62,938 nucleotides of DNA from an uncultured Bacilli bacterium (GCA_947629235.1 CANRCX010000005.1:1-62938); one strand, 5' to 3'; counted from the stretch's first letter, positions 20,216 to 41,333 are shown. Made by a program: numbers and translations. The notes: generated by a model not told the origin, from the letters alone.

Positions 20216-20260
20216 AGTGTTTCAAAATTGATGTTTTTTGAAACACTCTTTTTCTCTTTT
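20216..20260 (+). terminator. intrinsic terminator
   Basis: 12-bp stem agtgtttcaaaa/ttttgaaacact plus T-rich tail. Confidence 0.75.
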
Positions 20261-20315
20261 TAAACGCTTAATTGCTCTTTTTGAAGTATATAATTATTAC
20301 TGATGGGATGTTATA

Positions 20316-20765: not shown

Positions 20766-20816
20766 TTAAACTAAAGGAAAGTATTTACTTTCCTTTAGCA
20801 ATTTTATGAGGAGAAT

Positions 20817-23369: not shown

Positions 23370-23422
23370 AATGATAACTATATTTTAAATCGTATTAAAG
23401 ACACCATATATGATTATAAAAG

Positions 23423-23454
23423 CACTTTAAAGCTCTGAATTTAAAGTGTTTTTT
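23423..23454 (+). terminator. intrinsic terminator
   Basis: cactttaaa...tttaaagtg plus T6. Confidence 0.65.
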
Positions 23455-23542
23455 CATTTTATAGATATGTACACAATATTAATAGAGAGTATTAAAAGTA
23501 AAAATATGGTATAATAATTATAAATTTAAGGAGTGGTATAAA

Positions 23543-23797
23543 ATGATGATTAGTCCTGCATCTTATATTGATACTCAAAAGAACAAAACATATAAAGAAT
23601 TATTAAGAGAACGAAATAAATTATTGAGTGATATTAATAATTTTGAAAATGGTAATATTAAAAAATCAAACATAATAGATCCAAGACCAGAAGTAATTTA
23701 TCAATGGAATTTGATGTATCTTGGAGAATTATGCAAACTTATTTCAAAAAAATATAACAAAGAGTATATAATGTTTGATGAAAGTCAAGATGAATAA
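23543..23797 (+). CDS. 84-aa hypothetical protein, first gene of the SWIM operon
   Basis: TGgTATAAT extended -10 and AAGGAG SD upstream; 2-nt gap to the SWIM gene. Confidence 0.5.
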   Translation: MMISPASYIDTQKNKTYKELLRERNKLLSDINNFENGNIKKSNIIDPRPEVIYQWNLMYLGELCKLISKKYNKEYIMFDESQDE

Positions 23798-23799
23798 GC

Positions 23800-24846
23800 A
23801 TGATTTATAAAAAAGAAGTATTGCCAGAAAAATATATTAGATTTGAGATTCTCCATTCTACTGATTTTGATAATTTATTTGAAAAAAGAATTAAAAGTAG
23901 AGGATTATTCTATTATACTAATGGCAATGTGAAAAATTTTACATTTAAAAATAACATATATTATGCAGATGTAAAAGGTTCAAAAGTATATAGAGTAAAA
24001 GTAAAAATAGATAATAATTCTTTAAAAGAAATTAGTTGTACTTGTCCTTATCATAATGATATCAATAAATATTGTAAACATATATATGCACTTTTATTGG
24101 CAGTTAAAATGCAAAATGAAAGAAAAGATATTATAATATGTATAAAAAATCATATAAATAATATATTAAGTTCAGTAAAAGAAATGAATAATATTATAGA
24201 GAAAAATAAAGATACATTATATCCTTATGAAATTGAATGGTTTAAAAAAAGAATTATAAATTATAAAGAAAAGATTAAATCTTTTAAAAAAGAATATGAA
24301 AAGTTAAAAGATTTTGAATTGTTTAAATTAGTAAGAGAGTTAAATTATTCTTTAAATATGTTATATGATGATTTGAATGAACTAGATACAAGATTAGAAA
24401 ATAACAAAAAAGAGTTAGAAAATGAAAAACAAAAAGATAAATCGCATATAGATACATTTACATACACTTTTGATGATAGCAAACTTTTTGATGCGATTGA
24501 TGACAAATTATCTGACATTGATTTAAAGACTTTATATCAAGTAAAAGAAAAATTAAATGAATCAAATGATGATACTGAACTAATAGATAAAGCAATAGTT
24601 AATAGAAAAAAGAAAGACAAGCAAATAAGAAAGCAAGAAAAAGAAGAAAATCGTTTGACTTTTGGACAAATACTATTGGGAACATTTTTAGGATTATCTA
24701 GTGGTAAGAAAAATAAAGTAGATAAACAAACAGATTATTTAATGCCATGGGAGAAGGAAAAAGTAAACAAAGGAAATTATGACGTTTGGAACTTTGAAGA
24801 AGAAGAACTTGAAGATGATGACTATTATAATGATGATTTAGATTGA
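23800..24846 (+). CDS. SWIM zinc-finger protein with coiled coil and acidic tail
   Basis: CTCPYHNDINKYCKHIYALL (CxCx(n)CxH SWIM signature). Confidence 0.7.
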   Translation: MIYKKEVLPEKYIRFEILHSTDFDNLFEKRIKSRGLFYYTNGNVKNFTFKNNIYYADVKGSKVYRVKVKIDNNSLKEISCTCPYHNDINKYCKHIYALLLAVKMQNERKDIIICIKNHINNILSSVKEMNNIIEKNKDTLYPYEIEWFKKRIINYKEKIKSFKKEYEKLKDFELFKLVRELNYSLNMLYDDLNELDTRLENNKKELENEKQKDKSHIDTFTYTFDDSKLFDAIDDKLSDIDLKTLYQVKEKLNESNDDTELIDKAIVNRKKKDKQIRKQEKEENRLTFGQILLGTFLGLSSGKKNKVDKQTDYLMPWEKEKVNKGNYDVWNFEEEELEDDDYYNDDLD

Positions 24847-25030
24847 TAAATAGAATGATGTTATGAATACTAAAAGCAAATAGTTACCAACTAAAGTAGA
24901 AGATATTGTTAATAGTGTAGCTTTTAATGATAAAACTGTAATTAAGAAAAATCTTGCATATAATATACAATAATTATATGTATTTAACAATATATTACAT
25001 TTATATTAAAATATAAAAAATTCAAAAAAG

Positions 25031-25116
25031 ATCAACAACTGATTTTGGATTGTCAGGTGTTACTCAGTCCAAATAGGTGAGAACACCTGACAATGTTGAT
25101 GTGGTGTTCTTTTTTA
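25031..25116 (+). promoter_or_regulatory. structured RNA element: 12-bp hairpin overlapping an alternative terminator hairpin
   Basis: Three pairings: ttgtcaggtgtt (25050-25061) with aacacctgacaa (25082-25093); outer atcaaca (25031-25037) with tgttgat (25094-25100); competing gaacacc (25081-25087) with ggtgttc (25103-25109) plus T7. Confidence 0.35.
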
Positions 25117-25185
25117 TTTTTATAAGATTAGAGATATGATAAAATAATACTATTAAGAAGAAAACTATAAAAGTAGGTGGTATAT

Positions 25186-26655
25186 ATGAAATTTAATATA
25201 GATGATGGAATATTACTAAGTGTTGAAGGATTAGAGAAGAACGTAAAAATACCAGGATGCGTTACAGAAATTAGTAAGAAAGTATTCAAAAATCATAAAG
25301 AAATTCAAAATATAGAGATTCCTAATAGTTTAAAAAAAATAGGTGCACAAGCATTTTATGATTGTGAGCAACTAACTACAATAAAATTACCAAAGGAATT
25401 AGAAGAAATTGGTAAAGAGGCATTTTCACATTGTGAAAGTTTAAGTTCAATAAATATTCCAAATAAAATAGAAAAAATAAGTGATTGTACATTTAAGGGA
25501 TGTACGAAACTAACAAAAATAAATTTTCTATCGAACTTAAAAGAAATTGGATTTTCAGCTTTTAGTGGTTGTATGAACTTAAAAGAAATCAATTTTCCAC
25601 CAAGTTTAAAACTTATAGGTATTAATGCTTTTACAGATTGTAATAAAATAAATATAACATTACCAAATAATTTAAATGAAATAAAATTTGCTCTTGATTT
25701 AGAAGAGATAGGAATAGATAATTTAGTTTTATCATCCAAAGATAAAAATCACATTATAAAATTTCAAGATAATAAAAAAGAAATTGTATTTAACTATACA
25801 TTATTTCCATTTAAAGAAAATATAAATTATTTAATAAAAACTTTAAATAATAAAAATGAGTACAAAATTTTCTATTTCCTTATAAAATTATGCATATTAT
25901 ATAGTCCGTTAGATGAATTAAGCAAAATGGTATCTTTACTAGATTCTATAATTTCTGTATCATATGCTAAAGAATCAAAAGAAATTAAAAAGTTAGTTTG
26001 TGAGTGCAGATATTTAGAAGATAATAAAGAAAATAATTATTTAAAATTTAAACAAATTGCCGATACATATCGTTATGATTATGACTACTCAGAATTAGAT
26101 AAATTATTATTAAAAAATACTAATATTTTGAATTGTACATCTTGTGGAAAACAATCACTTGTAATTAATAAAGATAAAAATATTTATATATGTTTTAATT
26201 GTAATAAGTATGGTAAAGTAACTGACCTTGATATCGTTAAAAAGACTAAAACAAATAAAAAACTTAAGTATTATGATGAAATATATAATGAGTTAAAAGA
26301 AAATAATTGTTTAAAAACTAAAGAATATGCATTATATGGTATAACATTTTATAAATTAAATAGTTACTTTATTGCACCAGATTTATATGAAGATGAAGAT
26401 ATATTGTATGAACTTATTAAAAATAATTCCTTTGATAATAGGAAAAATATATTTAATAAATTGCAAATATTAGAAAATGATAATTTTAAAAAAAGAATTC
26501 TTGAGTTAGATGAATACAATAAAAGATTCATCGATATGAATAAGAATAAAGATTATAACCCATTTGATGAATTTGCTGATGAAATTGAAATATTTGATGA
26601 TTTTTCATTTGATGACTTAGAATCCAATATATCAGATGATGAACTAATTTTTTAA
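25186..26655 (+). CDS. signal-less BspA-type leucine-rich-repeat protein with internal zinc ribbon and acidic tail
   Basis: Repeats of the IPNSLKKIGAQAFYDCEQLTTIKLP type (x5-6); CTSCGK...CFNCNKYG; AGGTGG SD before ATG 25186. Confidence 0.7.
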   Translation: MKFNIDDGILLSVEGLEKNVKIPGCVTEISKKVFKNHKEIQNIEIPNSLKKIGAQAFYDCEQLTTIKLPKELEEIGKEAFSHCESLSSINIPNKIEKISDCTFKGCTKLTKINFLSNLKEIGFSAFSGCMNLKEINFPPSLKLIGINAFTDCNKINITLPNNLNEIKFALDLEEIGIDNLVLSSKDKNHIIKFQDNKKEIVFNYTLFPFKENINYLIKTLNNKNEYKIFYFLIKLCILYSPLDELSKMVSLLDSIISVSYAKESKEIKKLVCECRYLEDNKENNYLKFKQIADTYRYDYDYSELDKLLLKNTNILNCTSCGKQSLVINKDKNIYICFNCNKYGKVTDLDIVKKTKTNKKLKYYDEIYNELKENNCLKTKEYALYGITFYKLNSYFIAPDLYEDEDILYELIKNNSFDNRKNIFNKLQILENDNFKKRILELDEYNKRFIDMNKNKDYNPFDEFADEIEIFDDFSFDDLESNISDDELIF

Positions 26656-26834
26656 TAAAAAAGGAAATATTATCAATAAATTTATATAAATTATTATCAA
26701 AAAACATTTATAGATAGTCAAGTAAGCTATCTTTTTTTAATGTTTAGATATTTTAAAATGAAATTAACTTAAAGCAATAGGAAAAATATAAAATTATGAT
26801 ATAATTATAAATGTGAGTGAGTAAGAGGTAGTAA

Positions 26835-29800
26835 ATGAAACTGATAGATAATCATATTGAAAAATTAGGCGATGATTTAAAAAAAACAATAACTAATAAT
26901 TCTAAAATTAGAATTTGTGCATCTATATTCTCTATGTATGGATATGAAGCTTTAAAAAAAGAATTATCAAAGATTGATGAATTTAAATTTATATTCACTG
27001 ATCCTACTTTTGTAGAAAAAGCAACAAATAATAAAGAACAGAGATTATTTGAAGTTAATAATAGAAATAGAGAAAAAAGTTTAAGTGGATCACCATTTGA
27101 AGTTAGATTAAAAAATGAATTAAATGGAAAAAGTATTGCAAAAGAATGTGCAGAATGGATAAAGAAAAAAGGAAAATTTAAATCTAATATTGGTGGAGAA
27201 GCTATACAAAGATTTGTGCTTTTACAAAATGAAGCATCAGATATTATTTATACAAATATGGAAGAATTTTCTACTATTGGATTAGGATATGAAAAAGATA
27301 ATGCGATTTATATGCCTATTACTAAGATTGATGATAATTATGAATTTTCAAAAAGATATCTAGATTCATTTGAACAAATATGGAATGATGAAACACATTT
27401 AAAAGATGTTACAAATGAAGTTATAGAATTTATGTCTGACTTATATAAAGAAAATTCACCAGAATTTATTTATTACATAACTCTTTATAATATATTTACT
27501 GAATTTTTAGAAGATATATCAGAAGATGAACTAGCAAATGAAAAAACAGGATTTAAAGAATCAAAAATATGGAATTCACTTTATGAATTTCAAAAAGATG
27601 CAGTTTTAGGAATAATTAATAAATTAGAAAGATTTAATGGATGTATATTAGCAGATAGTGTTGGTTTAGGAAAAACATATACAGCCTTAGCAGTTATTAA
27701 ATATTATCAAGAAAGAAATAAAAGTATATTAGTTTTGTGTCCAAAAAAATTAAGTGAAAACTGGAATACGTTTATTAAGAATTATAAAGATAATCCATTA
27801 CAAGAAGATAGATTTAATTATGATGTATTATTTCATACAGATTTATCAAGAACACATGGAGAATCTAATGGTATGGATTTATCACGAGTTAATTGGGGTA
27901 ATTATGATTTAGTTGTTATAGATGAATCACATAATTTTAGAAATAATCAAGCAAGAAATGATAGAGAAACAAGATATGATAGACTTATGAATGAAGTTAT
28001 GAAAGCTGGGGTTAAAACAAAAGTATTAATGTTATCTGCTACACCAGTAAATAATAAGTTTAATGATTTAAAAAATCAACTTGCTTTAGCATATGAAGGT
28101 AAGACAGATAAAATAGATGAAAAAATTAGTAATACAAAATCTATAGATACTATTTTAAAAAATGCTCAAACTGTATTTAATGAATGGAGTAAATTAGATC
28201 CAAATAAAAGAACTAGTGAAGAATTATTAAGTAGACTTAATTCTAATTTTGATTTCTTTAAATTATTAGATAGTGTTACAATTGCTAGATCAAGAAAACA
28301 TATTGAAAAATATTATGATATGAATTCAATTGGTAAATTTCCAACTAGATTAAAACCTATTAGTAAGTCCCCAGAACTTACAGATATTCAAGGATTTATG
28401 TCAATTAAAGATATTGCTGAAGAATTAAATAAATTAAATATGAGTATTTATGCTCCTTTTGATTATATATTACCAAATAAACTTAGTGAATATGAAGACA
28501 TATATGATATAGAAGTTAAAGGTGGACAATCTAGTTTCCATCAAGCTGATAGAGAAAAAAGTTTACAAATTTTAATGAGAATTAATTTTTTAAAAAGATT
28601 AGAAAGTTCTGTATCTTCTTTTAGAATAACTTTAAATAAAGTTTTAAATCAAATATCATCAACTTTACAATCTATAGAAAATTTTGAAAATAGGGGAATT
28701 AATCAATCATTTGAGAATGTTGAAGTTACAAATTATAATTCAGATGAAGATATTGAAGATTTATTAGAAGACCAATTTAGTATTGGTAAAAAAGTTAAAA
28801 TTAAATTAGAAGATATGAATACAATTGGATGGAAAGAAGATTTACTTTCAGATTATAAAATATTAAAAACATTACTTTATGAAATGGAAAAAGTAACTCC
28901 TGAACATGATACAAAATTAAATGAATTAGTTAATATGATTATTGATAAAATTGATCATCCAATTAATAAAGATAATAAAAAAGTTATTATTTTTAGTGCA
29001 TTTGCAGATACAGCAGATTATATTTATAAAAGTATTGCTAATAATTTAAAAAATCATTATAATTTACAAACTTGTAAAATAACTGGTTCTGGATTTAATG
29101 AATGTACAATTGAAATGAATAAAGAATTTAATAATTTATTATTAAATTTTTCACCAAAATCAAAACATAGGGATATGTTAGATCCAAATTCAAAGAATGA
29201 TATAGATATTTTAATCGCAACTGATTGTATTTCTGAAGGACAAAATTTACAAGATTGTGATTATTTAATAAATTATGATATACATTGGAATCCTGTTAGA
29301 ATAATACAAAGATTTGGCCGTATTGATAGAATAGGATCTCTTAATGATGTTATTCAATTAGTTAATTTTTGGCCTAATATTTCTTTAGATGATTATATTA
29401 ATTTAAAAAATAGAGTAGAAAATAGAATGTTAATGTTAGATATATCAGGAACAGGTGAAGATAATGTTTTAACTAATAAATCTAGTGATATAGAATATCG
29501 TAAAGCTCAATTACAAAAGTTAAAAGAAGAAGTAGTTGATTTAGAAGATATGAATACTGGAATAAGTATTACTGATTTAGGATTAAATGATTTTAGAATG
29601 GATTTAGTTGAATATGTTAAAGAGAATGGAAATTTAGATGGAACACCATTTGGCTTACATTCAGTTGTACATGAAAATAAATCATTAGGAATAGAAAAAG
29701 GTGTAATTTATGTTTTAAAAAATATAAATAATGAAGTTAATATTGATAATATGAATCAATTACATCCATTTTATTTAGTTTATATAAAAGAAGATGGAGA

Positions 29801-30095
29801 GATACTTTCAAATCATTTAAATGTAAAAAATACATTAGATTTATTAAGAACTATGTCTAAAGGTAATACTGAACCAATAAAAACTGCTTATAATATTTTT
29901 AATGAATTTACAAATGATGGAAAAGATATGACAATGTATTCAGAATTATTAAATCAAAGTATTGATTCTATAATTAATATAAAAGAAGAAAATGATATAG
30001 ATAGTTTATTTAAATCAGGTGGTACAACAATGTTAAAAAATAATATAAAAGGTTTAGAAGATTTTGAACTTATCTCATTTATGGTGATAATATGA
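26835..30095 (+). CDS. SNF2-family helicase (1086 aa) with ~240-aa N-terminal domain of unclear function
   Basis: ADSVGLGKTYTA (I), VIDESHNFRN (II), SATPVNN (III), TDCISEGQNLQDC (V), WNPVRIIQRFGRIDRIGS (VI). Confidence 0.85.
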   Translation: MKLIDNHIEKLGDDLKKTITNNSKIRICASIFSMYGYEALKKELSKIDEFKFIFTDPTFVEKATNNKEQRLFEVNNRNREKSLSGSPFEVRLKNELNGKSIAKECAEWIKKKGKFKSNIGGEAIQRFVLLQNEASDIIYTNMEEFSTIGLGYEKDNAIYMPITKIDDNYEFSKRYLDSFEQIWNDETHLKDVTNEVIEFMSDLYKENSPEFIYYITLYNIFTEFLEDISEDELANEKTGFKESKIWNSLYEFQKDAVLGIINKLERFNGCILADSVGLGKTYTALAVIKYYQERNKSILVLCPKKLSENWNTFIKNYKDNPLQEDRFNYDVLFHTDLSRTHGESNGMDLSRVNWGNYDLVVIDESHNFRNNQARNDRETRYDRLMNEVMKAGVKTKVLMLSATPVNNKFNDLKNQLALAYEGKTDKIDEKISNTKSIDTILKNAQTVFNEWSKLDPNKRTSEELLSRLNSNFDFFKLLDSVTIARSRKHIEKYYDMNSIGKFPTRLKPISKSPELTDIQGFMSIKDIAEELNKLNMSIYAPFDYILPNKLSEYEDIYDIEVKGGQSSFHQADREKSLQILMRINFLKRLESSVSSFRITLNKVLNQISSTLQSIENFENRGINQSFENVEVTNYNSDEDIEDLLEDQFSIGKKVKIKLEDMNTIGWKEDLLSDYKILKTLLYEMEKVTPEHDTKLNELVNMIIDKIDHPINKDNKKVIIFSAFADTADYIYKSIANNLKNHYNLQTCKITGSGFNECTIEMNKEFNNLLLNFSPKSKHRDMLDPNSKNDIDILIATDCISEGQNLQDCDYLINYDIHWNPVRIIQRFGRIDRIGSLNDVIQLVNFWPNISLDDYINLKNRVENRMLMLDISGTGEDNVLTNKSSDIEYRKAQLQKLKEEVVDLEDMNTGISITDLGLNDFRMDLVEYVKENGNLDGTPFGLHSVVHENKSLGIEKGVIYVLKNINNEVNIDNMNQLHPFYLVYIKEDGEILSNHLNVKNTLDLLRTMSKGNTEPIKTAYNIFNEFTNDGKDMTMYSELLNQSIDSIINIKEENDIDSLFKSGGTTMLKNNIKGLEDFELISFMVII

Positions 30096-30697
30096 TAGAA
30101 TTACCAAAAAGATGTTTAGTAAATAGAAATATACCTAAAAAAGTTTTTTATGAAAAATTAGGTATTTCAACAAGTATTAAAGATGATTTTGTAAGTATTG
30201 TTGATAAAATTATATGGCTATACAAATTATCAGAAGATACACTAGGAATATCAAAAACAAAAGAAGTAGAAGAAATAGAAGTATTTGAAATTGATTTAAA
30301 AGAAAAAAAGATTCCTAAAAATGTTATTAGAGTAATAGCAAAAGGAATACCATATAAAATATTATTTGTGATAAAATATAATAATGATATATGTTATGGA
30401 GTCAAAATAGAAGATTTATATTTTTCTGAATGGAATGAAGAATTAGAATTCAATTTTGATGGACTTAATCTTGAAACTATATTTGAAAATATAGTTAAAA
30501 CAATTATAAAGGAAAAAGATAATAATAAAGATTTTTCTATTCTTATTGATAATAAATCAAAGAAAGAAGAATTATCAAAAAAAATTGAACAATTAAAAAA
30601 CAAGATTAAGCAAGAAAAACAATTTAATAAAAAAGTTGAATTAAATCAACAATTAAGAAAATTAGAAATTGTTATGGAGGAATTAGTAAATGAATAA
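30092..30697 (+). CDS. small accessory protein, DUF4391-like
   Basis: ATGA overlap with the SNF2 gene and 8-nt overlap with mod. The pattern EEIEVFEIDLKEKKIPKNVIRVIAKGIPYKILFVI recalls DUF4391 from memory only. Confidence 0.4.
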   Translation: MIELPKRCLVNRNIPKKVFYEKLGISTSIKDDFVSIVDKIIWLYKLSEDTLGISKTKEVEEIEVFEIDLKEKKIPKNVIRVIAKGIPYKILFVIKYNNDICYGVKIEDLYFSEWNEELEFNFDGLNLETIFENIVKTIIKEKDNNKDFSILIDNKSKKEELSKKIEQLKNKIKQEKQFNKKVELNQQLRKLEIVMEELVNE

Positions 30698-32588
30698 ATT
30701 AGACATGGAATCTGTTAATATTATAAATGGTAATATAGAAAAGATAGGAAATTTATTTCCAAATGTAATAGTGGAATCAGAAAATGGCAAAGCAATAGAT
30801 TTTGATTTATTAAAACAAGAGTTATCAGATGAAATTGTTGATGAAAGCAAAGAAAAATATCAATTAACTTGGCCAGGAAAGAAAAAATCAATATTAAATG
30901 CCAATACACCATCTAAAAATACATTAAGACCAATAAGAGAAAAATCAGTTGATTTTGATAATACACAAAATATTTATATTGAAGGAGATAATTTAGAAGC
31001 ATTAAAAATATTACAAGAATCATACTTAAATAAAATTAAATGTATTTATATTGATCCACCATATAACACAGGCAATGATTTTATTTATAATGACAATTTT
31101 GATAAAACAAAAGAAAATGAATTGTTAGAATCAGGACAAATTGATGAAGATGGCTATAGACTAGTAAGCAATAATCAATCTAATGGAAGATTTCATAGTG
31201 ATTGGTTATCAATGATGTATTCTAGATTAAAACTTGCAAGGAATTTGTTATCAAATGATGGGGCAATAATTATTAGCATAGATGTAAATGAATTAAACAA
31301 TCTTTGCAAAATTTGTGATGAAATATTTGGTGAAAAAAACTTTTTAGGAATATTCCCAAGAAAAACTACCGAACACATAAGAGTTTTAGCCGATTATGAA
31401 TTACAAAATTTGAATGATTATGTTGTAATATATTGTAAAAATTTAGAAAAAATAAAGTTAAATAAAAAAAATATAGGTGAAATTCAATATGATTACGAAG
31501 ATGATAATGGGAAATATATATTAAAGGCTTTTCAAAATTCTGGTGAAAATGGAACTAGAAAGGCAAGACCAAATTTATATTATCCTATATATTACAATGA
31601 GAAAACAAAAACATTATCTCTTGAAAAAAGCGATAATTCTATTGAGATTTTACCTCGCAAAGTCAAATCAGAAGACGGGAGATGGCTTTGGAGTAAAGAA
31701 AAATTTGTTCAAGATAACAAATTGTTAGAATATAAAAATGGCACAATACATAGAAAAGTTTACTATAATGAAGATGAAGATCAAACAAAATATGAATCAT
31801 TTAAAACGTGGCTAGATATGTATCCTAACAGACTAGGTGCTAAAAAGTTAAATGAATTGGAAATGGGAGAATATTTTGATTATTCGAAACCAGTTGATTT
31901 GATTAAATTTTTGCTTGAACTTATAATTGATAAAAATTCAATTGTTTTAGACTTTTTTAGTGGTAGTGCAACGACAGCACAAGCAGTTATGGAATTAAAT
32001 ATAGAAAAAAAGTATAATTTAAAAAACATTATGGTTCAGTTAAATGAACAGATAGATGAAAACAGTAAAGCATATATAGATGGATATAAAAATATTTGTG
32101 ATATAGGTGAAGAAAGAATTAGAAGAGCTGCAAAGAAAATTAAGGAAGAAACAAATGCAGATATTGATTATGGATTTAGAGTTTATAAAATAGATTCTTC
32201 AAATATGAAAGATGTATATTATAAACCTAATGAGTTACAACAATCACAATTGTCACTATTTGAAACTAATATAAAAGAAGATAGAACAACTGATGATTTA
32301 TTAACACAAGTAATACTTGATTTAGGGTTAACATTAGATTTAAAAATAGAAGAAAAGAAAATACTAAATAATAATGTATATTATGTAGATACTAATTCAT
32401 TGGTAGCTTGTTTTGATGATGAAATTGATATAAATATTGTTGATGAAATCTGTAAAGTTGAACCATTGAAAGTAGTATTTAAAGATTTTTCATTTAAAAC
32501 TGATAAAGATAAAATAAATTTAGAAGAAAAATTCAAAAAATTATTACCTGAAAGGGCAACTGACAAAAATTTTATAAGTATTATATAA
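30690..32588 (+). CDS. Mod-type (beta-class) N6-adenine DNA methyltransferase
   Basis: Motif IV IYIDPPYNTGNDF precedes motif I LDFFSGSATTAQAV, with a long variable region between them. Confidence 0.85.
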   Translation: MNKLDMESVNIINGNIEKIGNLFPNVIVESENGKAIDFDLLKQELSDEIVDESKEKYQLTWPGKKKSILNANTPSKNTLRPIREKSVDFDNTQNIYIEGDNLEALKILQESYLNKIKCIYIDPPYNTGNDFIYNDNFDKTKENELLESGQIDEDGYRLVSNNQSNGRFHSDWLSMMYSRLKLARNLLSNDGAIIISIDVNELNNLCKICDEIFGEKNFLGIFPRKTTEHIRVLADYELQNLNDYVVIYCKNLEKIKLNKKNIGEIQYDYEDDNGKYILKAFQNSGENGTRKARPNLYYPIYYNEKTKTLSLEKSDNSIEILPRKVKSEDGRWLWSKEKFVQDNKLLEYKNGTIHRKVYYNEDEDQTKYESFKTWLDMYPNRLGAKKLNELEMGEYFDYSKPVDLIKFLLELIIDKNSIVLDFFSGSATTAQAVMELNIEKKYNLKNIMVQLNEQIDENSKAYIDGYKNICDIGEERIRRAAKKIKEETNADIDYGFRVYKIDSSNMKDVYYKPNELQQSQLSLFETNIKEDRTTDDLLTQVILDLGLTLDLKIEEKKILNNNVYYVDTNSLVACFDDEIDINIVDEICKVEPLKVVFKDFSFKTDKDKINLEEKFKKLLPERATDKNFISII

Positions 32589-32601
32589 AGAGGTGTAATG
32601 G

Positions 32602-35600
32602 ATGAAATTAAAATTTAAGCAACAACAATATCAAGAAGATGCTGTAATGTCAGTTGTAAATTGTTTTAGTGGTGAAAAAAAAGGAAGCAGAAGAGATTTA
32701 TTATTTAGACGAGTAAGAACAATAGATGAAGGAACATTATTAGAAAGGCAAGAAGATGAAGATTTTGTTTCTTTTGGAAATCATGGCTTTAATCTTACTG
32801 AATCACAAATAAGAAATAATATAAGGAATGTTCAAAGATTAAATGATATAAATTATACAGATAATGCTGGAATTAGAGATTTTACTATTGAAATGGAAAC
32901 AGGTACCGGAAAAACATATACTTATATAAAAACTATGTATGAATTAAATAATGCTTATGGTTGGAGTAAGTTTATTGTAATGGTACCTAGTATTGCTATT
33001 CGTGAGGGTGTACATAAGTCTTTTGAAATAACACAAGATCATTTTCAAGAAATATATCATAAAAAAATTAAATTTTTTGTTTATAATTCTTCTAATATTG
33101 CTAATATAAATGATTTTGTTTCTGATGATTCTATACATGCTATGATAATTAATTATCAAGCTTTTAATACTGAAGAAAAATCAAAAGGAGTTAATAAAAG
33201 AATTTATAAATATTTAGATGAATTACAATCAAGAAGACCAATAGATGTTATTAATAGTGTTAATCCAATATTAATTTTAGATGAACCTCAAAAAATTGGT
33301 GATAAAACAGAAGAAAAATTAAAAGAATTTAAACCATTATTTACAATTCGTTATTCTGCAACTCATAGAAAAGGAAAAGAATACAATAAAATTTATAGAT
33401 TAGATGCAATAGATGCATATAATCAAAAATTAGTAAAAAAGATAAATGTTAAAGGTATAGAAATACTACATAATAAATCAGAAGATACTTATTTATTTTT
33501 AGATAGTGTTAATATCAGTCAAAAGCATGATCCAGAAGCTATTATGGAAATAGAAGTAAAATCATCAAATGGTGTGTCAAGAAAGCTTGTAAAATTAAAA
33601 GCAGGTGATGACCTTTGGTCAAAATCTGGTGAGTTACAACAATATAAAGGATTTGTAGTAAGTGAAATAGATGGAAGATATGATCAATATGATAAAGTTT
33701 TTTTTACTAATGGAGTCGAAATACAAGTTGGGCAAGCATTTGGTGATATAGATGAATCCCATTTAATTAGAATTCAAATTAGAGAAACTATACGTTCACA
33801 TTTTGAAAAAGAAAAAGAACTTCATAAATTAGGAATAAAAGTATTATCATTATTCTTTATTGATGAAGTGTCAAAATATAAATATTATGAAGATGGTATT
33901 GCTTTAAAAGGGGAGTATGCTAAAATATTTGAAGAAGAATATACTAAAGCATTAAATGATTATAGAACATTATTTGATGATGATTATACAAAATATTTAG
34001 ATTCATTTGATACAGGTAAAATTCATGCTGGATATTTTTCAATAGATAAAAAAGGTCATGAAATTGATCCAAGTATAAATGATAAGAAGGAATATTTAAG
34101 TTTTGATGAAGATGCTTATGATTTAATTATGAAAGATAAAGAAAGACTTTTATCATTAGAAGAACCTGTTAGATTTATATTCTCACACTCTGCATTAAGA
34201 GAAGGTTGGGATAATCCAAATATATTTCAAATATGTACTTTAAAACATAGCAATTCAGAAATAAGTAAAAGACAAGAAATAGGTCGTGGTCTTCGTATTT
34301 GTGTTAATAATGATGGAGAAAGAATGGATTATAATGTATTAGAAAATGATTTTTATAATATTAATACATTAACTATTATTGCTAGTGAATCTTATGATAG
34401 TTTTGCTAAAGCACTGCAAACAGAAATAGCAGAAACTTTAACTGCAAGACCAAAAAACTTTACTGCTGAATCATTTATTGGTAAAATTTTAACTAATGAA
34501 TCTGGTGAACATTATGAATTTACACAAGAACATTTTCAAGATTTATTAATATTCAATGTAATGAATGGATATGTAGATCAAAAAGATAATTATAAAATAA
34601 CTGACAAGTTTATTGAAGATATGGAAAATGGAAAATTAGAAGTAATGCCTGCTTTAGTTGGATTTGAAGAACAAGTATCTAGTTTAATGAAGAGATTATA
34701 CTCAACTAATAATACTAAACTTGTTAACAATGAAGGAAAACATAATATCACAAGTCTTGTTCCTAATAAAAATTTTATGAAAAAAGAATTTCAAGATTTA
34801 TGGAATAAAATTAATGTTAAAACAATTTATGAAGTTGATTTTGATACAAAAGAATTGATAGATAAATCAGTACAAGCTATAAATGAAAGATTTAATATTT
34901 CTAAAATGCAAGTTAAAATAACTGAAGGTGAACAAAAAGATAAAATGACTTCTGTATCAGTTAACAGTGGCAGTTCGATGACAGAAGGAAGAACTAAAAC
35001 TGAAACAATTGAAGAGTTTTCTCCATCTCAAATTGAATATGATTTAATAGGTGAAATAACCAGAGATACAGGACTAACAAGAAAAACAGTAATAAATATT
35101 TTGACTAAAATTTCACCTGAAAAATTTAATTATTATCAATATAATCCAGAAGAATTTATAAGAAAAGTTTGTAATTTAATAAATCAAGAAAAAGCAACAA
35201 CTATAATTGATGGTATAACATATCATAAAACAGAACAAAAATATTCAAATGATATATTTACTATAAATAATGTTCAAGGTGAATTAGGTGAAAATGCAAT
35301 AGATGTTAAAAAACATATATATGATTATTTAGTTACAGATTCTAAAAATGAAACTAATTTTGCAAGAAAACTAGAATCTGGTGAAGTAACTGTGTATGCA
35401 AAACTACCTAATGGATTTAAGATACCAACTCCAGTTGGAAATTATAATCCAGATTGGGCTATAGTATTTGATAATCCTACATTTAAATATGTGTATTTTG
35501 TTGCTGAAACAAAAGGAAGTATGGATTCACTTGAATTAAGAGATGTTGAAAAAGCAAAAATAGAATGTGCTAAGAAACATTTTAAATGTATTAGTAATGA

Positions 35601-35661
35601 TGAAGTTAAATATGATGTTGTAGATAGTTATGAATCATTAATTAATATATTAACTGCATAA
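32602..35661 (+). CDS. Type III restriction Res-type helicase-endonuclease
   Basis: ETGTGKTYT (I), LILDEPQK (II), SALREGWDNPNIFQICTL, QEIGRGLRI (VI), C-terminal PD-(D/E)xK NPDWAIVF...FVAETKG. Confidence 0.85.
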   Translation: MKLKFKQQQYQEDAVMSVVNCFSGEKKGSRRDLLFRRVRTIDEGTLLERQEDEDFVSFGNHGFNLTESQIRNNIRNVQRLNDINYTDNAGIRDFTIEMETGTGKTYTYIKTMYELNNAYGWSKFIVMVPSIAIREGVHKSFEITQDHFQEIYHKKIKFFVYNSSNIANINDFVSDDSIHAMIINYQAFNTEEKSKGVNKRIYKYLDELQSRRPIDVINSVNPILILDEPQKIGDKTEEKLKEFKPLFTIRYSATHRKGKEYNKIYRLDAIDAYNQKLVKKINVKGIEILHNKSEDTYLFLDSVNISQKHDPEAIMEIEVKSSNGVSRKLVKLKAGDDLWSKSGELQQYKGFVVSEIDGRYDQYDKVFFTNGVEIQVGQAFGDIDESHLIRIQIRETIRSHFEKEKELHKLGIKVLSLFFIDEVSKYKYYEDGIALKGEYAKIFEEEYTKALNDYRTLFDDDYTKYLDSFDTGKIHAGYFSIDKKGHEIDPSINDKKEYLSFDEDAYDLIMKDKERLLSLEEPVRFIFSHSALREGWDNPNIFQICTLKHSNSEISKRQEIGRGLRICVNNDGERMDYNVLENDFYNINTLTIIASESYDSFAKALQTEIAETLTARPKNFTAESFIGKILTNESGEHYEFTQEHFQDLLIFNVMNGYVDQKDNYKITDKFIEDMENGKLEVMPALVGFEEQVSSLMKRLYSTNNTKLVNNEGKHNITSLVPNKNFMKKEFQDLWNKINVKTIYEVDFDTKELIDKSVQAINERFNISKMQVKITEGEQKDKMTSVSVNSGSSMTEGRTKTETIEEFSPSQIEYDLIGEITRDTGLTRKTVINILTKISPEKFNYYQYNPEEFIRKVCNLINQEKATTIIDGITYHKTEQKYSNDIFTINNVQGELGENAIDVKKHIYDYLVTDSKNETNFARKLESGEVTVYAKLPNGFKIPTPVGNYNPDWAIVFDNPTFKYVYFVAETKGSMDSLELRDVEKAKIECAKKHFKCISNDEVKYDVVDSYESLINILTA

Positions 35662-35673: not shown

Positions 35674-36306
35674 ATGAAAAAAGTTTTAAAAATTACTTTA
35701 ATTGTTATAGGAATTATAATGGGAATTATCTTAATTGATACACTACAAGCTATAATATTTGATAATAGTCCATTATTAAAAATAAGGGATAATTTTGATG
35801 CTGGAAGTATTGATTATATTGATAAAGGTTTATTTGTAAATCATTATCATTGTATTAATGATGAGAATGTTACAACATGGAAAAAAACAAAATTTTCTTG
35901 TTCAATAGAAGAAAATTTAGAAGAATCAACTTATAATATTAATAATGAAATAATAACTACAAGTATTAAGGAAAATACACTAACAAGTTCTTCATTAACA
36001 TTAATTTTTCATAATAATACAAATGAAACATATTATTATGGAGCAGGTAGTGGAATTATAGAAAAAGAAATAGATGGAAAATGGTATAAACTTAATACTA
36101 TCGAAAATGAAAATATTATAGCTATAGCTTATAATATACTTCCAAATACTAGTAAAGAATTTGAAAGTAATTTTGGTAATATTTATGGAAAATTAGCAAA
36201 AGGAAAATATAGAATTATTAAATCATTTTTTAGTGAAAAAGATTTTCATAAAGATGGATTAGCAGAATCTAATATTTATTCAGCTGTTGAATTTGAAATA
36301 AAGTAA
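35674..36306 (+). CDS. N-terminally membrane-anchored extracytoplasmic protein, unknown function
   Basis: TM VLKITLIVIGIIMGIILI, then a beta-rich domain. Confidence 0.55.
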   Translation: MKKVLKITLIVIGIIMGIILIDTLQAIIFDNSPLLKIRDNFDAGSIDYIDKGLFVNHYHCINDENVTTWKKTKFSCSIEENLEESTYNINNEIITTSIKENTLTSSSLTLIFHNNTNETYYYGAGSGIIEKEIDGKWYKLNTIENENIIAIAYNILPNTSKEFESNFGNIYGKLAKGKYRIIKSFFSEKDFHKDGLAESNIYSAVEFEIK

Positions 36307-36317
36307 TTTATTAATAA

Positions 36318-36340
36318 AAGATAGTTAAAACTATCTTTTT
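36318..36340 (+). terminator. intrinsic terminator closing the R-M-like operon
   Basis: aagatagtt/aactatctt plus T5. Confidence 0.6.
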
Positions 36341-36344
36341 AAAT

Positions 36345-36373
36345 TTGACACTTTTTATAACTTGTGGTATAAT
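36345..36373 (+). promoter_or_regulatory. consensus promoter TTGACA-17-(TGg)TATAAT for sigma paralogue 1
   Basis: Hexamers at 36345-36350 and 36368-36373 with TG at 36365-36366. Confidence 0.65.
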
Positions 36374-36419: not shown

Positions 36420-37289
36420 ATGGAAGAAGAATATTATGATTATATGAATAATAATTCAGGTGTTGAACTATACATTAAAGAGCTTATGGAAATTCCTATG
36501 CTAACAGAAGAAGAAAAACAAGAATTACCAATTTTAATATCAAAAGGTGATATTAAAGCTAAAAAAAGATTTGTTGAAGCTAATTTAAGACTTGTTGTAT
36601 ATGAAGTAAATAATTTTATGAAAAATTATTTTATACAAATGAATTTATTTGAAGAATTAATTAGTGTAGGAAATGAAGCTTTAGTTAAAGCAGTAGAAAC
36701 ATTTGATTATAAAAAGGGAATAAAATTTTCAACATATGCGATTAAATTAATTGATAATAAAATATATAGTTATTATTTACAAAATACATATAAATTTAAA
36801 TTTTCTCACAATTTTTATCATGATCTTATGGTTATAGAAAAATATTTAGAAAATGAAAAATTAAATAATAAAAACTATGTAAATATTGATGAAATATCTA
36901 AAAATACTGGTATAAGTTATAAAACTATTTGTATAATTTTTGATATTTTAAAACCAGTAGTATATTTAGATAAACCAGCAAAGGATGAAGATGATTGTAC
37001 TGTTGGTGATTTAATTGAGGATGAAAGAGTAAATGTTGATGAAAAAGCTAAGTATTTACATGATTTTTATAAAGTAGTTATTAATAGTGATAGAATTACT
37101 AAAAGACAATTAAAAATATTATTATATAGAACTGGATTTTATAATAATAGAGTTTATTCATTAAAAGAATTATCTAAAATGTTTAATATTACTCCAAGTG
37201 GTGTAAATTCTGTTTATAAAAGTAGTATTAAAAAGTTATTATTAGACTCTAAAGTATTAAGTTATGCTCCAGATTCTTATAAGATATAA
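36420..37289 (+). CDS. sigma-70 family paralogue 1 (289 aa, divergent, lacks the shared N-terminal domain)
   Basis: Region 2 ANLRLVVYEV and KFSTYA; region 4 SLKELSKMFNITPSGVNSVYKSSIKKL. Confidence 0.7.
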   Translation: MEEEYYDYMNNNSGVELYIKELMEIPMLTEEEKQELPILISKGDIKAKKRFVEANLRLVVYEVNNFMKNYFIQMNLFEELISVGNEALVKAVETFDYKKGIKFSTYAIKLIDNKIYSYYLQNTYKFKFSHNFYHDLMVIEKYLENEKLNNKNYVNIDEISKNTGISYKTICIIFDILKPVVYLDKPAKDEDDCTVGDLIEDERVNVDEKAKYLHDFYKVVINSDRITKRQLKILLYRTGFYNNRVYSLKELSKMFNITPSGVNSVYKSSIKKLLLDSKVLSYAPDSYKI

Positions 37290-37291
37290 TA

Positions 37292-37320
37292 TTGATTTTT
37301 AAAGACTTTTATGTTACAAT
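37292..37320 (+). promoter_or_regulatory. promoter TTGATT-17-(TGt)TACAAT for paralogue 2
   Basis: Hexamers at 37292-37297 and 37315-37320. Confidence 0.5.
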
Positions 37321-37345
37321 CTATTGCGAATATTCGGAGGGATTT

Positions 37346-38653
37346 ATGGAAAAAAATAATTATATTAATGATTTGAGTGAATTTATAAACTCAAATTTTG
37401 AAAGTAGTGATGATTTAAAGATAAATGTTAAAAATATTAGGAATTTATTCAGTTATGTAAGTTATAATAATCCAAATATTGAATTTTCTGTTTTAGATGC
37501 AGAATTATTACTTATAAATTGTCCTTCACTTAGTAAAACAATTAAAACAGTTAAAAGTCATAAAGAACTAAATTCAATATTTAGTGGAAGTGAAAATGAA
37601 ATATTTAAAGATTTATATAATAATTTAATTGAAGCTATTAGTATAGCTGATAAAAAAGAAGAATATTTAAATTCATTAGAAGATGATATTTCATATAATG
37701 CTTATGAAAGAAGAAGTAAAACTGTTAGTGAAGATATTTTTAATTATTATCTTAAAGAAATATCTAAAAGACCACTACTTAGTCCCGAAGAAGAAAAAAT
37801 TTTAGCATATGAAATTAGAAATGGTAATGAAAATGCTAAAATTAGATTTATTGAATCAAATTTACGTTTAGTAGTTAGTATTGCTAAAAGATATACTAAT
37901 CGTGGACTTGATATATTAGATTTAATTGAAGAAGGTAATATAGGTTTAATGATGGCAGTTGATAGATTTGATCCAGATAAGGGATATAAATTTTCAACAT
38001 ATGCAACATATTGGATAAGACAAGCTATGACTCGTTCTATAGCAAAATATGGAAGATCAATAAGAATATCAGTAGATGCAACATATCAATTAAATAGAAT
38101 TAACCGTATTCAAAGATATTTTAAAGATGAATTACAAAGAGAAGCAACTGATGAAGAATTATCTTCAGTTTTAGGTCTATCTCGTGCTAGAATTAAAGAA
38201 TTAAAAGAATTACCTGAAGACTCAATATCTTTAAATGCACCAGTAGGAGAAGATAAAGATACTACTATTATGGATTATGTAGCCGCAGAAGGAAATTTTG
38301 AAGAAGATTTAATTAATGAAATATCTACTGGTGAATTTATGGAAATATTTAATAAAGTAAATCTATCTCCAAAAGAAAGAAAAGTTCTTTTATTAAGAGC
38401 AGGATATTTTGATGAAAAAGAAAGAACTCTAGAAGAAATAGGGGATATGTATGGTGTTACAAGAGAAAGAATTAGACAAGTTGAAGCAAAAGCACTAAAA
38501 AAAGTAAGATCAGACTATGAAGTTAAGAAATTTATTGATAATAGTAGATTATATGTACAAGATTATATAGCACAAAATAAATCTAAAAAAGCTGCCTCTT
38601 TAACAAATTATATAAATAATACAAATATGAGATTACAAAAGAAAAAGAATTAA
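37346..38653 (+). CDS. RpoD-like sigma-70 paralogue 2 with novel N-terminal domain and C-terminal tail
   Basis: [74 protein letters not shown]; GGAGGG SD before ATG 37346. Confidence 0.85.
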   Translation: MEKNNYINDLSEFINSNFESSDDLKINVKNIRNLFSYVSYNNPNIEFSVLDAELLLINCPSLSKTIKTVKSHKELNSIFSGSENEIFKDLYNNLIEAISIADKKEEYLNSLEDDISYNAYERRSKTVSEDIFNYYLKEISKRPLLSPEEEKILAYEIRNGNENAKIRFIESNLRLVVSIAKRYTNRGLDILDLIEEGNIGLMMAVDRFDPDKGYKFSTYATYWIRQAMTRSIAKYGRSIRISVDATYQLNRINRIQRYFKDELQREATDEELSSVLGLSRARIKELKELPEDSISLNAPVGEDKDTTIMDYVAAEGNFEEDLINEISTGEFMEIFNKVNLSPKERKVLLLRAGYFDEKERTLEEIGDMYGVTRERIRQVEAKALKKVRSDYEVKKFIDNSRLYVQDYIAQNKSKKAASLTNYINNTNMRLQKKKN

Positions 38654-38688
38654 ATAATAGTGATAATTTAATAAAAATATACAAAAAC

Positions 38689-38717
38689 TTGATTTTTTTG
38701 TTAAATTGTGTTATAAT
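38689..38717 (+). promoter_or_regulatory. promoter TTGATT-17-(TGt)TATAAT for paralogues 3-5
   Basis: Hexamers at 38689-38694 and 38712-38717. Confidence 0.6.
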
Positions 38718-38752
38718 TTAAGACATTATTAAAAAGGGGGTAAAGGAGAATT

Positions 38753-40147
38753 ATGAGTGAATTTGATGATATGGATCAATTTGGTTATAATGAGAATGAT
38801 CTTGATAATATGGATATTATTGCAATTGATGAAATAATTAATTTTATAAAAACTAATTTTGTTTCAAGTCCAAATATTTCAGTTAATATAAATAATATTA
38901 AAAAATTAATAAAATTTTTAAATGAAAAAAACTTTTCAAATTTAACAGCAGTAGAAGCTCAAACTCTATTAAAAGAATGCCCAAAATTAAAAGATACAAT
39001 TGTTAAAATAAGAAAAGAAAAAGATCTTGATAATATGTTTAGAAAAAGTGAAAATGAAGAATTTAAAACACTTTATATTAATATGTGTAATTTTTTAGAT
39101 AACAAAGTATCAATTAAGGGATATGAAGACATTGATTATGAATCAGATGAAAATGAAGAAAAATCAAATAGAACTTATTATGAAACATTTACTGATGATA
39201 TAGTTAAACAATATTTAAATGAAATAGCTAGAATTCCTTTACTTACACCAGAAGAAGAAAAGGATTTAGCTATAAAAATCTCAAATGGTGATGAAGAAGC
39301 TAGAAAAAAATTCTATGATGCTAATTTACGTTTACCAGTTAGTATTGCTAAAAAATATATTGGAAAAGGAGTTGCATTTTTAGATTTAATACAAGAAGGA
39401 AATATGGGACTTGAAAAAGCAGTTGATAAATTTGATATAAATAAAGGATATAAATTTTCAACATATGCAACTTGGTGGATAAGACAAGCAATAACAAGAG
39501 CTATAGCTGATCAAGGAAGAACTATTAGAATACCTGTTCATGCTTATGAGTCAATTAATAAGATGAAAAGATTTCAAAGAAGTTATTATGAAGAAAATCA
39601 AGTAGAAGCATCTGATAAAGAAATAGCTAAACATATGGGTGTATCAGAAGAAACTATAAAAGAATGGAAAAAATCAGCTCAAGAATTAGTTTCATTAGAT
39701 TCTCCAGTTGGAGATGAAGAAGATAGCACTATAATGGATTTTTATGTTAGTGATGATAATTTAGAAGATGATATAGTAAAACAATTATCAAATGAAGAAT
39801 TTATGAAAGTATTTTTCTCAGTAAAACTAGCTCCAAGAGAAAGAGAAGTTCTATTATTAAGAAATGGTTACTATGATAATAGAGTTTATACTTTAGAAGA
39901 AATTGGTGCTAAATATAAAATTACTAGAGAAAGAGTAAGACAAATAGAAGCAAAAGCACTTAGAAAATTAAGACAAAATAAAGATATTAGAAGATTTTCT
40001 TCAAATCCAGGATATTATGCACAAGATTATAGAAGCGATAGTGTATATAAAAAGATTAGATTTGATGAAGAAGATTATCAAAGAGGAAATGAAATAGATA
40101 AAGAATTAGTAAGGAAATACTATAAATACAACAAGAGGAAATATTAA
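38753..40147 (+). CDS. RpoD-like sigma-70 paralogue 3, closest to the housekeeping SigA consensus
   Basis: [31 protein letters not shown] and [28 protein letters not shown], but [12 protein letters not shown]. Carries the shared N-terminal domain. Confidence 0.85.
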
Positions 40148-40161
40148 AAGGGGTTTTTAAA

Positions 40162-41316: not shown

Positions 41317-41333
41317 TTATATGAGGTAATAAT

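Follow-up and report, generated by a model that had tools for sequence, protein, structure and literature searches.

Conserved linkage of a SNF2-family ATPase and a DUF4391 protein with Type III Mod and Res genes in bacteria and archaea

Results

Four coupled genes ending in a Type III Mod-Res pair

A stretch of 62,938 nucleotides from an uncultured Bacilli bacterium (GCA_947629235.1, CANRCX010000005.1:1-62938; this whole stretch is called the window, and positions are counted from its first nucleotide) carries four genes that together span ~8.8 kb and encode, in order, a SNF2-family ATPase, a DUF4391 protein, a Type III DNA methyltransferase (Mod) and a Type III restriction endonuclease (Res) (Table 1). 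The window has a G+C content of ~22% and nearly all of its genes lie on the plus strand. A preliminary description, made from the sequence alone, had presented these genes as one translationally coupled unit, and the coordinates of the open reading frames (ORFs) and all junctions match it exactly: read from the sequence, the SNF2 and DUF4391 genes overlap in an ATGA at 30092-30095, the DUF4391 and mod genes overlap by 8 nt (ATG at 30690, TAA at 30695-30697), and mod and res are separated by a 13-nt gap containing AGAGG. The searches proposed in that description, with profiles for the four proteins and with PADLOC, returned SNF2-rel_dom/Helicase_C, DUF4391, N6_N4_Mtase and ResIII/RE_endonuc, in agreement with the gene content that it had assigned.

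The last two genes form a complete Type III-like pair, as had been proposed. Mod matches the REBASE-derived PADLOC model MTase_III (PDLC03634) over its full length (E = 8.5e-203) and has the motif order of the beta class, with IDPPYNTG at aa 121-128 (DPPY at 122-125), a variable target-recognition domain (TRD), and DFFSGSATTA at aa 421-430 (FSGSATTA at 423-430); the DPPY and FSGSATTA motifs are conserved in 48 orthologues. Mean pairwise identity is 21% in the TRD, compared with 61% for the remainder of Mod. Res contains the Pfam domains ResIII and RE_endonuc (the latter at aa 903-1008, E = 1.2e-33), matches the PADLOC model REase_III (PDLC03647), also REBASE-derived, over its full length (E = 7e-297), and shares the motifs TGTGKT, DEPQ, QEIGRGLR and PDW...AETKG with its orthologues, one of which, from E. 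coli, is labelled 'type III restriction-modification system endonuclease' in RefSeq. Against PRK15483, the NCBIfam equivalog for Type III endonucleases, Res scores 367 bits, which is under the cutoff of 564. These features directly identify Mod as a beta-class adenine methyltransferase that is intact and exchanges its recognition domain freely between cassettes, and Res as an SF2 ATPase, likewise intact, with a PD-ExK nuclease.

Table 1 Features of the cassette and its surroundings in the window, and positions of genes inserted in related cassettes at other loci
Feature	Position	Strand	Basis or remark
tRNA-Arg(tct)	18427-18503		
SWIM zinc-finger protein	23800-24846		weak PADLOC PDC-S62 match
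BspA-type leucine-rich repeat (LRR) protein	25177-26655		
Extended -10-like element TGATATAAT	26797-26805	+	29 nt 5' of the SNF2 start codon; read from sequence
Ribosome-binding site AAGAGG before SNF2	26822-26827	+	read from sequence
Gene 1, SNF2-family ATPase, 1086 aa	26835-30095	+	ORF; Pfam SNF2-rel_dom and Helicase_C
Predicted PLD-superfamily-fold domain, aa 1-200	26835-27434	+	AlphaFold2 model and Foldseek; apparently catalytically inactive
SNF2 ATPase core, ~aa 245-850	27567-29384	+	motifs I, II, III and VI intact
SNF2 C-terminal region, aa 851-1086	29385-30092	+	mean column conservation 0.71-0.74
Gene 2, DUF4391 protein, 201 aa	30092-30697	+	ORF; Pfam PF14335
Gene 3, Mod, beta-class N6-adenine Type III methyltransferase, 632 aa	30690-32588	+	PF01555; PADLOC MTase_III
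Mod target-recognition region, aa 226-399	31365-31886	+	hypervariable between cassettes
Gene 4, Res, SF2 ATPase with C-terminal PD-(D/E)xK nuclease, 1019 aa	32602-35661	+	ResIII and RE_endonuc
Passenger gene, 210 aa, Big_14 Ig-like domain	35674-36306	+	Pfam Big_14; AAGGAG upstream
Hairpin with 10-bp stem, then U-run	36316-36345	+	RNA fold, free energy -8.6 kcal/mol, z -2.68 against shuffles
Inserted gene, locus L021	7733-8770		
Inserted gene, locus L032	12741-13769		
Inserted gene, locus L031	3289-4134		
Inserted gene, locus L059	10620-11552		
Inserted gene, locus L094	11581-13236		
Inserted gene, locus L018	8467-9999		

Linkage of the four genes across genomes

One genome per species, from 185,579 species, was scanned with an 11-sequence alignment of DUF4391 as the only seed; the closest 80 of the DUF4391-seeded loci were then searched by tblastn with the four window proteins (genetic code 11), and linkage was counted only in loci with enough flanking sequence for testing. 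DUF4391 relatives were found in at least 496 of the species genomes. The 80 loci derive from Bacilli, Clostridia, Proteobacteria, Bacteroidota, Fibrobacter, Spirochaetes, Planctomycetota, Omnitrophota and several phyla of the candidate phyla radiation (CPR), and on the archaeal side from Nano- and Woesearchaeota. Directly upstream of DUF4391 there is a SNF2 gene in 54/55 testable loci; on the downstream side, mod occurs in 57/59 and res in 42/42. The order SNF2-DUF4391-Mod-Res and the strand are constant. The linkage exceptions are one degraded locus and one locus from an organism which we take to use a recoded genetic code. The SNF2 gene and the small gene, which the preliminary description had assigned to the same system as Mod and Res, are therefore co-conserved with them across genomes in the same order, and by this comparison the juxtaposition is not accidental.

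Plasmids from E. coli (for instance pHH194M-140K, NZ_CP101514.1, 92379-101407), Acinetobacter, Mycolicibacterium, Phaeobacter, B. cereus, Vibrio and the archaeon Methanomethylovorans are annotated with the four genes in the same order (the PLSDB gene tables used as plasmid annotation being incomplete), and Listeria pLI100 carries a copy disrupted by an insertion sequence. Members of the DUF4391 family occur in 10 of 5,426 complete E. coli genomes, 10 of their 11 places being on plasmids, and in only 2 of 50,697 phage records. The DUF4391 family as a whole forms 1450 clusters at 50% identity (E up to 1e-3) and at least 4031 clusters at 90% identity (E up to 1e-10). No flanking gene is common to the 80 loci, the SWIM, LRR, Big_14 and DrmAB genes that were candidates for an extension of the cassette included; the conserved unit is therefore exactly four genes, and the SWIM, LRR and Big_14 neighbours in the window lie outside the system.

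In the four closest relatives from complete genomes, the cassette adjoins an RVT_1 reverse-transcriptase gene and further defence-like genes (DUF4325 and DUF3800) at 5593-6525 and in the flanks. These flanks are wholly unlike those of the window, which indicates that the cassette moves. One of these four loci also contains, on the opposite strand, a 31% fragment of a second SNF2 copy.

Co-variation of the proteins and independence of the TRD

Identity to the window proteins is highest for SNF2 (60-93% across phyla), followed by Res (~53%), Mod (47%) and DUF4391 (45%). When cassettes are compared in pairs, the identities of SNF2, DUF4391, the Mod core and Res rise and fall together (Spearman 0.80-0.93), and those of the Mod TRD show no correlation with the remaining components (rho about 0), even where the SNF2 proteins are 99% identical. 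Four proteins that co-vary around an uncorrelated TRD are the expected pattern of one machine inherited as a unit with its specificity under diversifying selection, and the sequence comparisons allow the direct inference that the SNF2 ATPase and DUF4391 are inherited with Mod and Res as one unit in both bacteria and archaea. DUF4391 was also considered as a specificity partner co-evolving with the Mod TRD, and was rejected in this role (rho -0.05).

In a metagenome-assembled genome (L016, JAUNNO010000008.1), SNF2 and Res share 93% and 85% identity with the window proteins, DUF4391 and Mod only 55% and 49%, and an extra ORF lies between the latter two. This suggests that the central DUF4391-Mod segment was replaced by recombination at that locus.

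The SNF2 protein has a predicted PLD fold lacking the conserved histidine

The size and the Pfam domains of the first protein agree with the earlier account of a 1086-aa SNF2 ATPase with an extra N-terminal domain. It matches the PADLOC family PDLC01075, 'C3a139 HKD+Snf2', over its full length (E = 2.9e-133, aa 7-1085 on profile positions 11-947 of 948), and the name of this family was traced to a 2018 survey (Shah et al.) of genes near type III CRISPR-cas loci (PMC6546367). In the ATPase core, LADSVGLGKT, VIDESHNFRN, LSATPVNN and QRFGRIDRIGS are conserved in 59 orthologues, and among PDB sequences the core matches Rad54/SNF2, Sth1, SMARCA5 and RapA. No Pfam match (E up to 10) was returned for the C-terminal region.

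The N-terminal domain matched nothing by sequence, either in Pfam (E up to 10) or, as a profile, in PDB sequences. An AlphaFold2 (AF2) model of aa 1-250 (mean predicted local distance difference test score, pLDDT, 75.6, with residues 62-93 of low confidence) was therefore the sole means by which its fold was revealed: in a Foldseek search of the PDB the best match was SauUSI (7clg, E = 8.7e-5, probability 1.0), and NgoAVII R (4rct), Zucchini and BfiI followed, all with probability of at least 0.99. On this model, the domain is a PLD-superfamily fold joined to a SNF2 motor, as in SauUSI and in MtsD, the effector of the MANTIS system. The statement in the preliminary description that the cassette lacks PLD partners must accordingly be withdrawn as far as the fold is concerned, with the qualification that the catalytic His is not conserved.

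Among 85 homologues no column of aa 1-250 contains an invariant His; within aa 55-135, His peaks at 32% in column 73, which in the window protein is a glutamate (E73). The HxK(x)4D catalytic motif of the PLD superfamily, with its invariant His nucleophile, is thus not a feature of this family. Residues G85, E89, N94 and A102 are invariant, and E104, C105, W108, K112 and N118 are nearly so. With the HKD His gone and other residues kept, the domain appears to be selected for a purpose other than PLD catalysis.

The DUF4391 protein

DUF4391 (PF14335) is the sole Pfam match of the second protein (aa 3-192, E = 2.8e-42, 145.7 bits against a gathering threshold of 29.9). In its AF2 model (pLDDT 87.2), aa 1-140 form an alpha/beta domain and aa 148-200 a helical hairpin at the C terminus, and the hairpin contains the most conserved motif of the family, EKQFNKKVELN. 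Foldseek returned no significant match for the model in the PDB (best E 0.086) or in BFVD (best E 0.15), and a search of PDB sequences matched only designed coiled coils, by way of the hairpin. The top Foldseek matches, to Hjc resolvase, a tRNA-splicing endonuclease and the SPARDA nuclease, have E-values of 0.09 or worse; they hint at a restriction-endonuclease-like fold and were not counted as evidence for one.

One relative of 380 aa (P0246) combines DUF4391 with an ASCH (PUA-like) domain at its C terminus, and at L016 a separate ORF with a weak Pua-like match (10596-11078) follows DUF4391. Both arrangements hint at the reading of a modified base. A like association with reader domains is described for the small DUF3780 protein of BREX-related type-2 systems (PMC12839542).

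Inserted genes and relatives of Res

Some cassettes have genes of the Bro-N or ORF6N type between DUF4391 and Mod, or of the RhuM or Schlafen/AlbA_2 type between Mod and Res (Table 1). At one locus a 510-aa ORF with a second DUF4391 domain lies between SNF2 and DUF4391, and four loci (L009, L013, L036 and L045) carry a tandem Mod pair. Similar hitch-hiker insertions are typical of Type I restriction-modification (R-M) operons, and we regard them as one more sign that the cassette behaves as an R-M unit.

The embedded genes, which include abortive infection (Abi)- and R-M-associated ones, also bear on whether the cassette serves defence at all. It could instead be an epigenetic regulator resembling a phasevarion, or a module for DNA repair or remodelling built from R-M-like parts, given that Type III mod genes can be phase-variable regulators and that SNF2 ATPases such as RapA have housekeeping roles. 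Besides the insertions, this idea is opposed by the lack of simple-sequence repeat tracts, as in phase variation, in mod or res, by the intact nuclease motif of Res, by the hypervariable TRD, and by a patchy distribution driven by horizontal gene transfer with carriage on plasmids. We regard a non-defence role as barely credible.

Plasmid-borne Res homologues of at least 43% identity lie in SNF2-DUF4391-Mod-Res cassettes, as do several at 34-36% (B. cereus, Vibrio and E. faecium). Outside this group, the Rhizobium p7 plasmid carries SNF2-Mod-DUF262-Res without DUF4391 (1338-10476 of L095), an Aeromonas plasmid carries Mod-Res with neither SNF2 nor DUF4391 (5482-10506 of L096; Res identity 34%), and P1-type Res, from the classical two-gene system, is ~29-35% identical, mainly in the helicase half. 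Since related Mod-Res pairs exist alone, as in Aeromonas and the P1-like systems, Mod-Res would be the ancestral and self-sufficient core, to which SNF2 and DUF4391 were added and in which they became fixed in a large branch.

The same relatives lend something to a reading of the locus as two separate systems, an ordinary Type III R-M pair and an independent SNF2/DUF4391 system with its own trigger, adjacent through co-selection or synergy. Defence genes do cluster and synergise, the SNF2 family first drew notice through its proximity to type III CRISPR-cas loci (PMC6546367), and accessory insertions fall most often between DUF4391 and Mod (~20/52 loci), which suggests a seam between modules at that point. 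Against this, DUF4391 is never found without Mod and Res where the flanks can be tested, the degraded and recoded loci excepted; fixed order, overlapping start and stop codons and strong co-evolution hold from E. coli to archaea; and SNF2 and DUF4391 have no recognisable effector of their own, the PLD domain having no His. Two independent systems are, on balance, improbable.

Comparison with characterised systems

Canonical Type III enzymes require no subunits besides Mod and Res, their Mod methylates unaided, and they are the textbook case of restriction by passive one-dimensional sliding between two sites. They hemimethylate a short asymmetric sequence, and their cleavage requires ATP and a pair of unmodified sites in inverse orientation. 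The cassette resembles the Type III enzymes EcoP15I and EcoP1I (Mod2Res) in having mod upstream of res in a single operon, a beta-class adenine Mod, a Res composed of an SF2 ATPase and a C-terminal PD-(D/E)xK nuclease, and a shuffled TRD. It differs in that it carries the PLD-fold SNF2 ATPase and DUF4391, genomically linked to Mod and Res throughout the testable loci, and in that its Res belongs to a distinct clade, below the equivalog cutoff given above. Judged by sequence, the cassette is derived from Type III R-M: Mod and Res have the characters of that type, and the system departs from its two-subunit definition.

The closest mechanistically studied analogue is MANTIS (Gao_RL, BREX-related type 2), whose components MtsA-D are two ATPases, an adenine methyltransferase and a small protein of novel fold. 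The ATPase MtsA, an ORC/Cdc6-type AAA+ protein (DUF499), and the small protein MtsB (DUF3780/DUF3870) are required for methylation, and MtsD, of PLD and SF2 architecture with the catalytic residue H122, is the effector and not a loader; a hemimethylation logic with asymmetric sites has been reported for the system. The cassette likewise combines two ATPases, one of them a SauUSI-like PLD-fold SF2/SNF2 protein, with an adenine methyltransferase and a small novel protein whose family is occasionally fused to ASCH/PUA reader domains, and hemimethylation of asymmetric sites is expected in it from a Type III Mod. Its SNF2 protein agrees with MtsD in predicted fold and in domain order. It differs from MANTIS in possessing a Type III Res with a PD-ExK nuclease of its own, and in that its PLD domain lacks the catalytic His of MtsD. 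Identity with MANTIS/Gao_RL was rejected: no DUF499 protein of the MtsA type was found in the cassette or the scanned neighbours, the PADLOC matches listed include none of the RL type, and the small protein is DUF4391, not DUF3780/DUF3870.

The need of MANTIS methylation for an ATPase and a small novel-fold protein raises the possibility that SNF2 and DUF4391 act in modification and self-protection, by loading or activating Mod, reading methylation, or removing Res from unmodified host sites. Such a role would reduce autoimmunity and let a newly transferred cassette become established, and safe establishment matters for a cassette that is highly mobile and often on plasmids; the 8-nt overlap of the DUF4391 gene with the start of mod, the ASCH fusion and the PUA-like ORF, and the similar case of DUF3780, all fit it. 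MtsA, however, is an AAA+ protein and not a SNF2 ATPase, the PLD and SF2 protein in MANTIS is the effector MtsD, related Mod-Res pairs exist without helpers and canonical Type III Mod needs none, and DUF4391 divergence does not follow the TRD (the rho of -0.05 given above). We think this analogy-based reading unlikely, although it is the alternative to be taken most seriously.

SauUSI (Type IV), the best structural match to the SNF2 N-terminal domain, shares with the SNF2 protein the order of PLD domain and SF2 motor; unlike the SNF2 protein, which has no conserved His and belongs to a Mod/Res operon, it is a modification-dependent enzyme that works as a single protein and possesses both an active HKD site and a target-recognition domain. 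In lactococcal AbiRc, a restriction-endonuclease-like N-terminal domain is joined to a SNF2 ATPase whose toxicity is controlled by the LlaKR2I methylase. The AbiR system thus resembles the cassette in having a SNF2 ATPase with a nuclease-like N-terminal domain under the control of a DNA methylase; its partners are sigma70-like and ParB-like proteins instead of DUF4391 and Res, and the likeness described here is one of architecture.

The preliminary description had likened the cassette to DISARM class 1 (DrmD, DrmMI, DrmA, DrmB and DrmC), with which it shares a SNF2-family ATPase and an adenine methyltransferase for asymmetric sites, while observing that the DUF1998 partner was missing. The latter point was borne out, as a scan of the cassette and 15 neighbouring proteins detected neither DrmB (DUF1998) nor DrmA or DrmC. 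The resemblance itself proved superficial and identity with DISARM class 1 was rejected: DUF4391 and Res are not DISARM components, the SNF2 protein scores 154 bits on the DrmD model NF038317 (cutoff 610) and 100 on NF038318 (cutoff 950), and DrmMI belongs to family PF13659 (bioRxiv 10.1101/2021.12.28.474362), as opposed to PF01555 for the cassette Mod.

A looser form of the idea makes the cassette a variant of DISARM class 1, with SNF2 in place of DrmD, Mod in place of DrmMI, Res in place of DrmA/B/C, and a mode of action like that of DISARM. Of the named NCBIfam families, DrmD does give the SNF2 protein its best score (E = 5.6e-45), and on the B. cereus plasmid pMRY14-0057_1 (L091, NZ_AP022875.1, 12724-26457) a bona fide DrmA (1010 bits, cutoff 950) and DrmB immediately precede the four-gene cassette, with no DrmC at that locus. 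This six-gene hybrid suggests that DISARM genes and the cassette can combine; it is not representative, as DrmAB are not shared across loci, and DrmA/B/C are not conserved beside the cassette in the 80 loci. Together with the low DrmD score and the different methyltransferase families, this makes a DISARM variant very improbable.

Flanks of the cassette in the window

The promoter reported near 26795 in the preliminary description exists as an element, the extended -10-like TGATATAAT, but promoter-like matches occur at chance level in this AT-rich DNA (116 found, 121 expected from shuffles), and the element is a plausible candidate promoter that is statistically indistinguishable from background. 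The terminator that was said to bound the cassette corresponds to a real hairpin, the only terminator-like one and likely the intrinsic terminator of the unit, which a consensus terminator scan overlooked because its stem contains too few G-C pairs. An unconserved fifth gene lies between it and res, however: the Big_14 gene begins 12 nt past the res stop codon, encodes a hydrophobic N-terminus, and has no homologue kept beside the cassette in the 80 other loci. Since the hairpin follows this gene, the transcript probably comprises five genes and not four, the Big_14 gene being probably co-transcribed with the cassette and outside the system.

Directly downstream of the unit, five tandem sigma-70-family paralogues (289, 453, 464, 384 and 401 aa) occupy 36420-42539 on the plus strand. 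They are preceded at 36345-36373 by a TG-extended TTGACA-17-TATAAT; no other site in the scanned region scores 12/12. Upstream of the cassette, the tRNA-Arg(tct) gene is followed by an HTH_3 protein and then an ABC-transporter/FtsX pair (region 18427-26655), and G+C falls to 0.18 at 21-24 kb of the window. The region from 18427 onward through the cassette may be a genomic island; no integrase was seen among the proteins scanned.

Discussion

The gene linkage and co-variation described here are consistent with a self-contained, horizontally mobile, four-component R-M cassette derived from Type III, in which the SNF2 motor and the DUF4391 adaptor act on the effector side, a proposal for and against which we see the evidence as about evenly balanced. 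A Mod dimer would read a short asymmetric site and methylate one strand of host DNA, and on unmodified foreign DNA Mod-Res would engage as in Type III enzymes. The SNF2 protein would probably dimerise through its His-less PLD-like domain, a role that active PLD domains play in SauUSI and MtsD, and could be tethered to Mod/Res by the coiled-coil hairpin of DUF4391. Its ATP-driven translocation on double-stranded DNA (dsDNA), or its stripping of bound proteins, would then replace or supplement passive sliding, so that, with active translocation or roadblock removal, long-range communication and Res cutting might no longer hinge on sliding between head-to-head sites alone. We assign the nuclease chemistry to Res since the PLD domain is without its nucleophile, and the effector-side role is favoured because the MANTIS protein of PLD and SF2 architecture is an effector and not a loader. 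The architecture predicts restriction of unmethylated DNA, and the term 'methylation-dependent' in the preliminary description was in this sense imprecise.

This effector-side proposal is supported by the intact catalytic motifs of both ATPases, Mod and the Res nuclease, by a TRD that does not co-vary with the other components, which fits an active R-M system, and by the precedent of MANTIS with its two ATPases, small protein and methyltransferase. Several points weigh against it. The loci were seeded on DUF4391 and limited to the closest 80, and the counts consequently show that DUF4391 implies the other three genes, not the converse; the Rhizobium relative with SNF2-Mod-DUF262-Res indicates, moreover, that DUF4391 can be dispensed with in some settings. 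Confidence in the PLD model is low at the very residues (62-93) expected to hold the active site, TM-scores are modest at 0.43-0.47, and a non-canonical active site in the PLD-like domain is possible on such a model. The predicted fold of DUF4391 yields no functional lead, the job of the SNF2 motor, whether translocation, roadblock removal, loading or regulation, is conjecture, and no experiment on any family member was found in the literature.

In the full-text literature searched, DUF4391 is named only in irrelevant work and PF14335 nowhere, and the cassette is not described in work on Listeria ICR, lactococcal R-M, MORC, YprA/ARMADA or domain-centric discovery. No description of the four-gene system was found, in a search that left subscription journals and supplements largely uncovered, so that an earlier comparative-genomic mention is possible; the statement in the preliminary description that no mechanism had been described for the SNF2 and small subunits is likewise in accord with the literature searched. 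The pieces are already in databases, as Pfam DUF4391, the PADLOC SNF2 family and the Type III Mod and Res models, under generic RefSeq labels. New relative to the preliminary description are two results of structure modelling, the predicted PLD fold of the SNF2 N-terminal domain and a confident DUF4391 model without significant structural match.

A large branch of Type III systems, in bacteria including CPR and in archaea, carries two further genes in the testable loci, and one of the two, SNF2, is more conserved than the Res nuclease. If SNF2 and DUF4391 are required, pipelines that call only 'RM type III' miss half the machine, and the rules of phage escape by site number and orientation may differ. 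A bolder extension, which we offer tentatively and with more doubt than belief, is that the cassette represents a pan-prokaryotic sub-type of ATP-dependent restriction, 'Type III plus', with a dsDNA translocase and a novel-fold adaptor as obligate subunits of a holoenzyme whose site communication is altered. If this were true, DNA with single or same-orientation sites, which escapes classical Type III enzymes, would be restricted, and the recurring pairing of a PLD-fold SNF2 protein with an adenine methylase in MANTIS, AbiR and the cassette would reflect one shared mechanistic principle. The compact cassettes on E. coli plasmids make the question directly testable, and functional proof would give roles to DUF4391 and to a His-less PLD domain.

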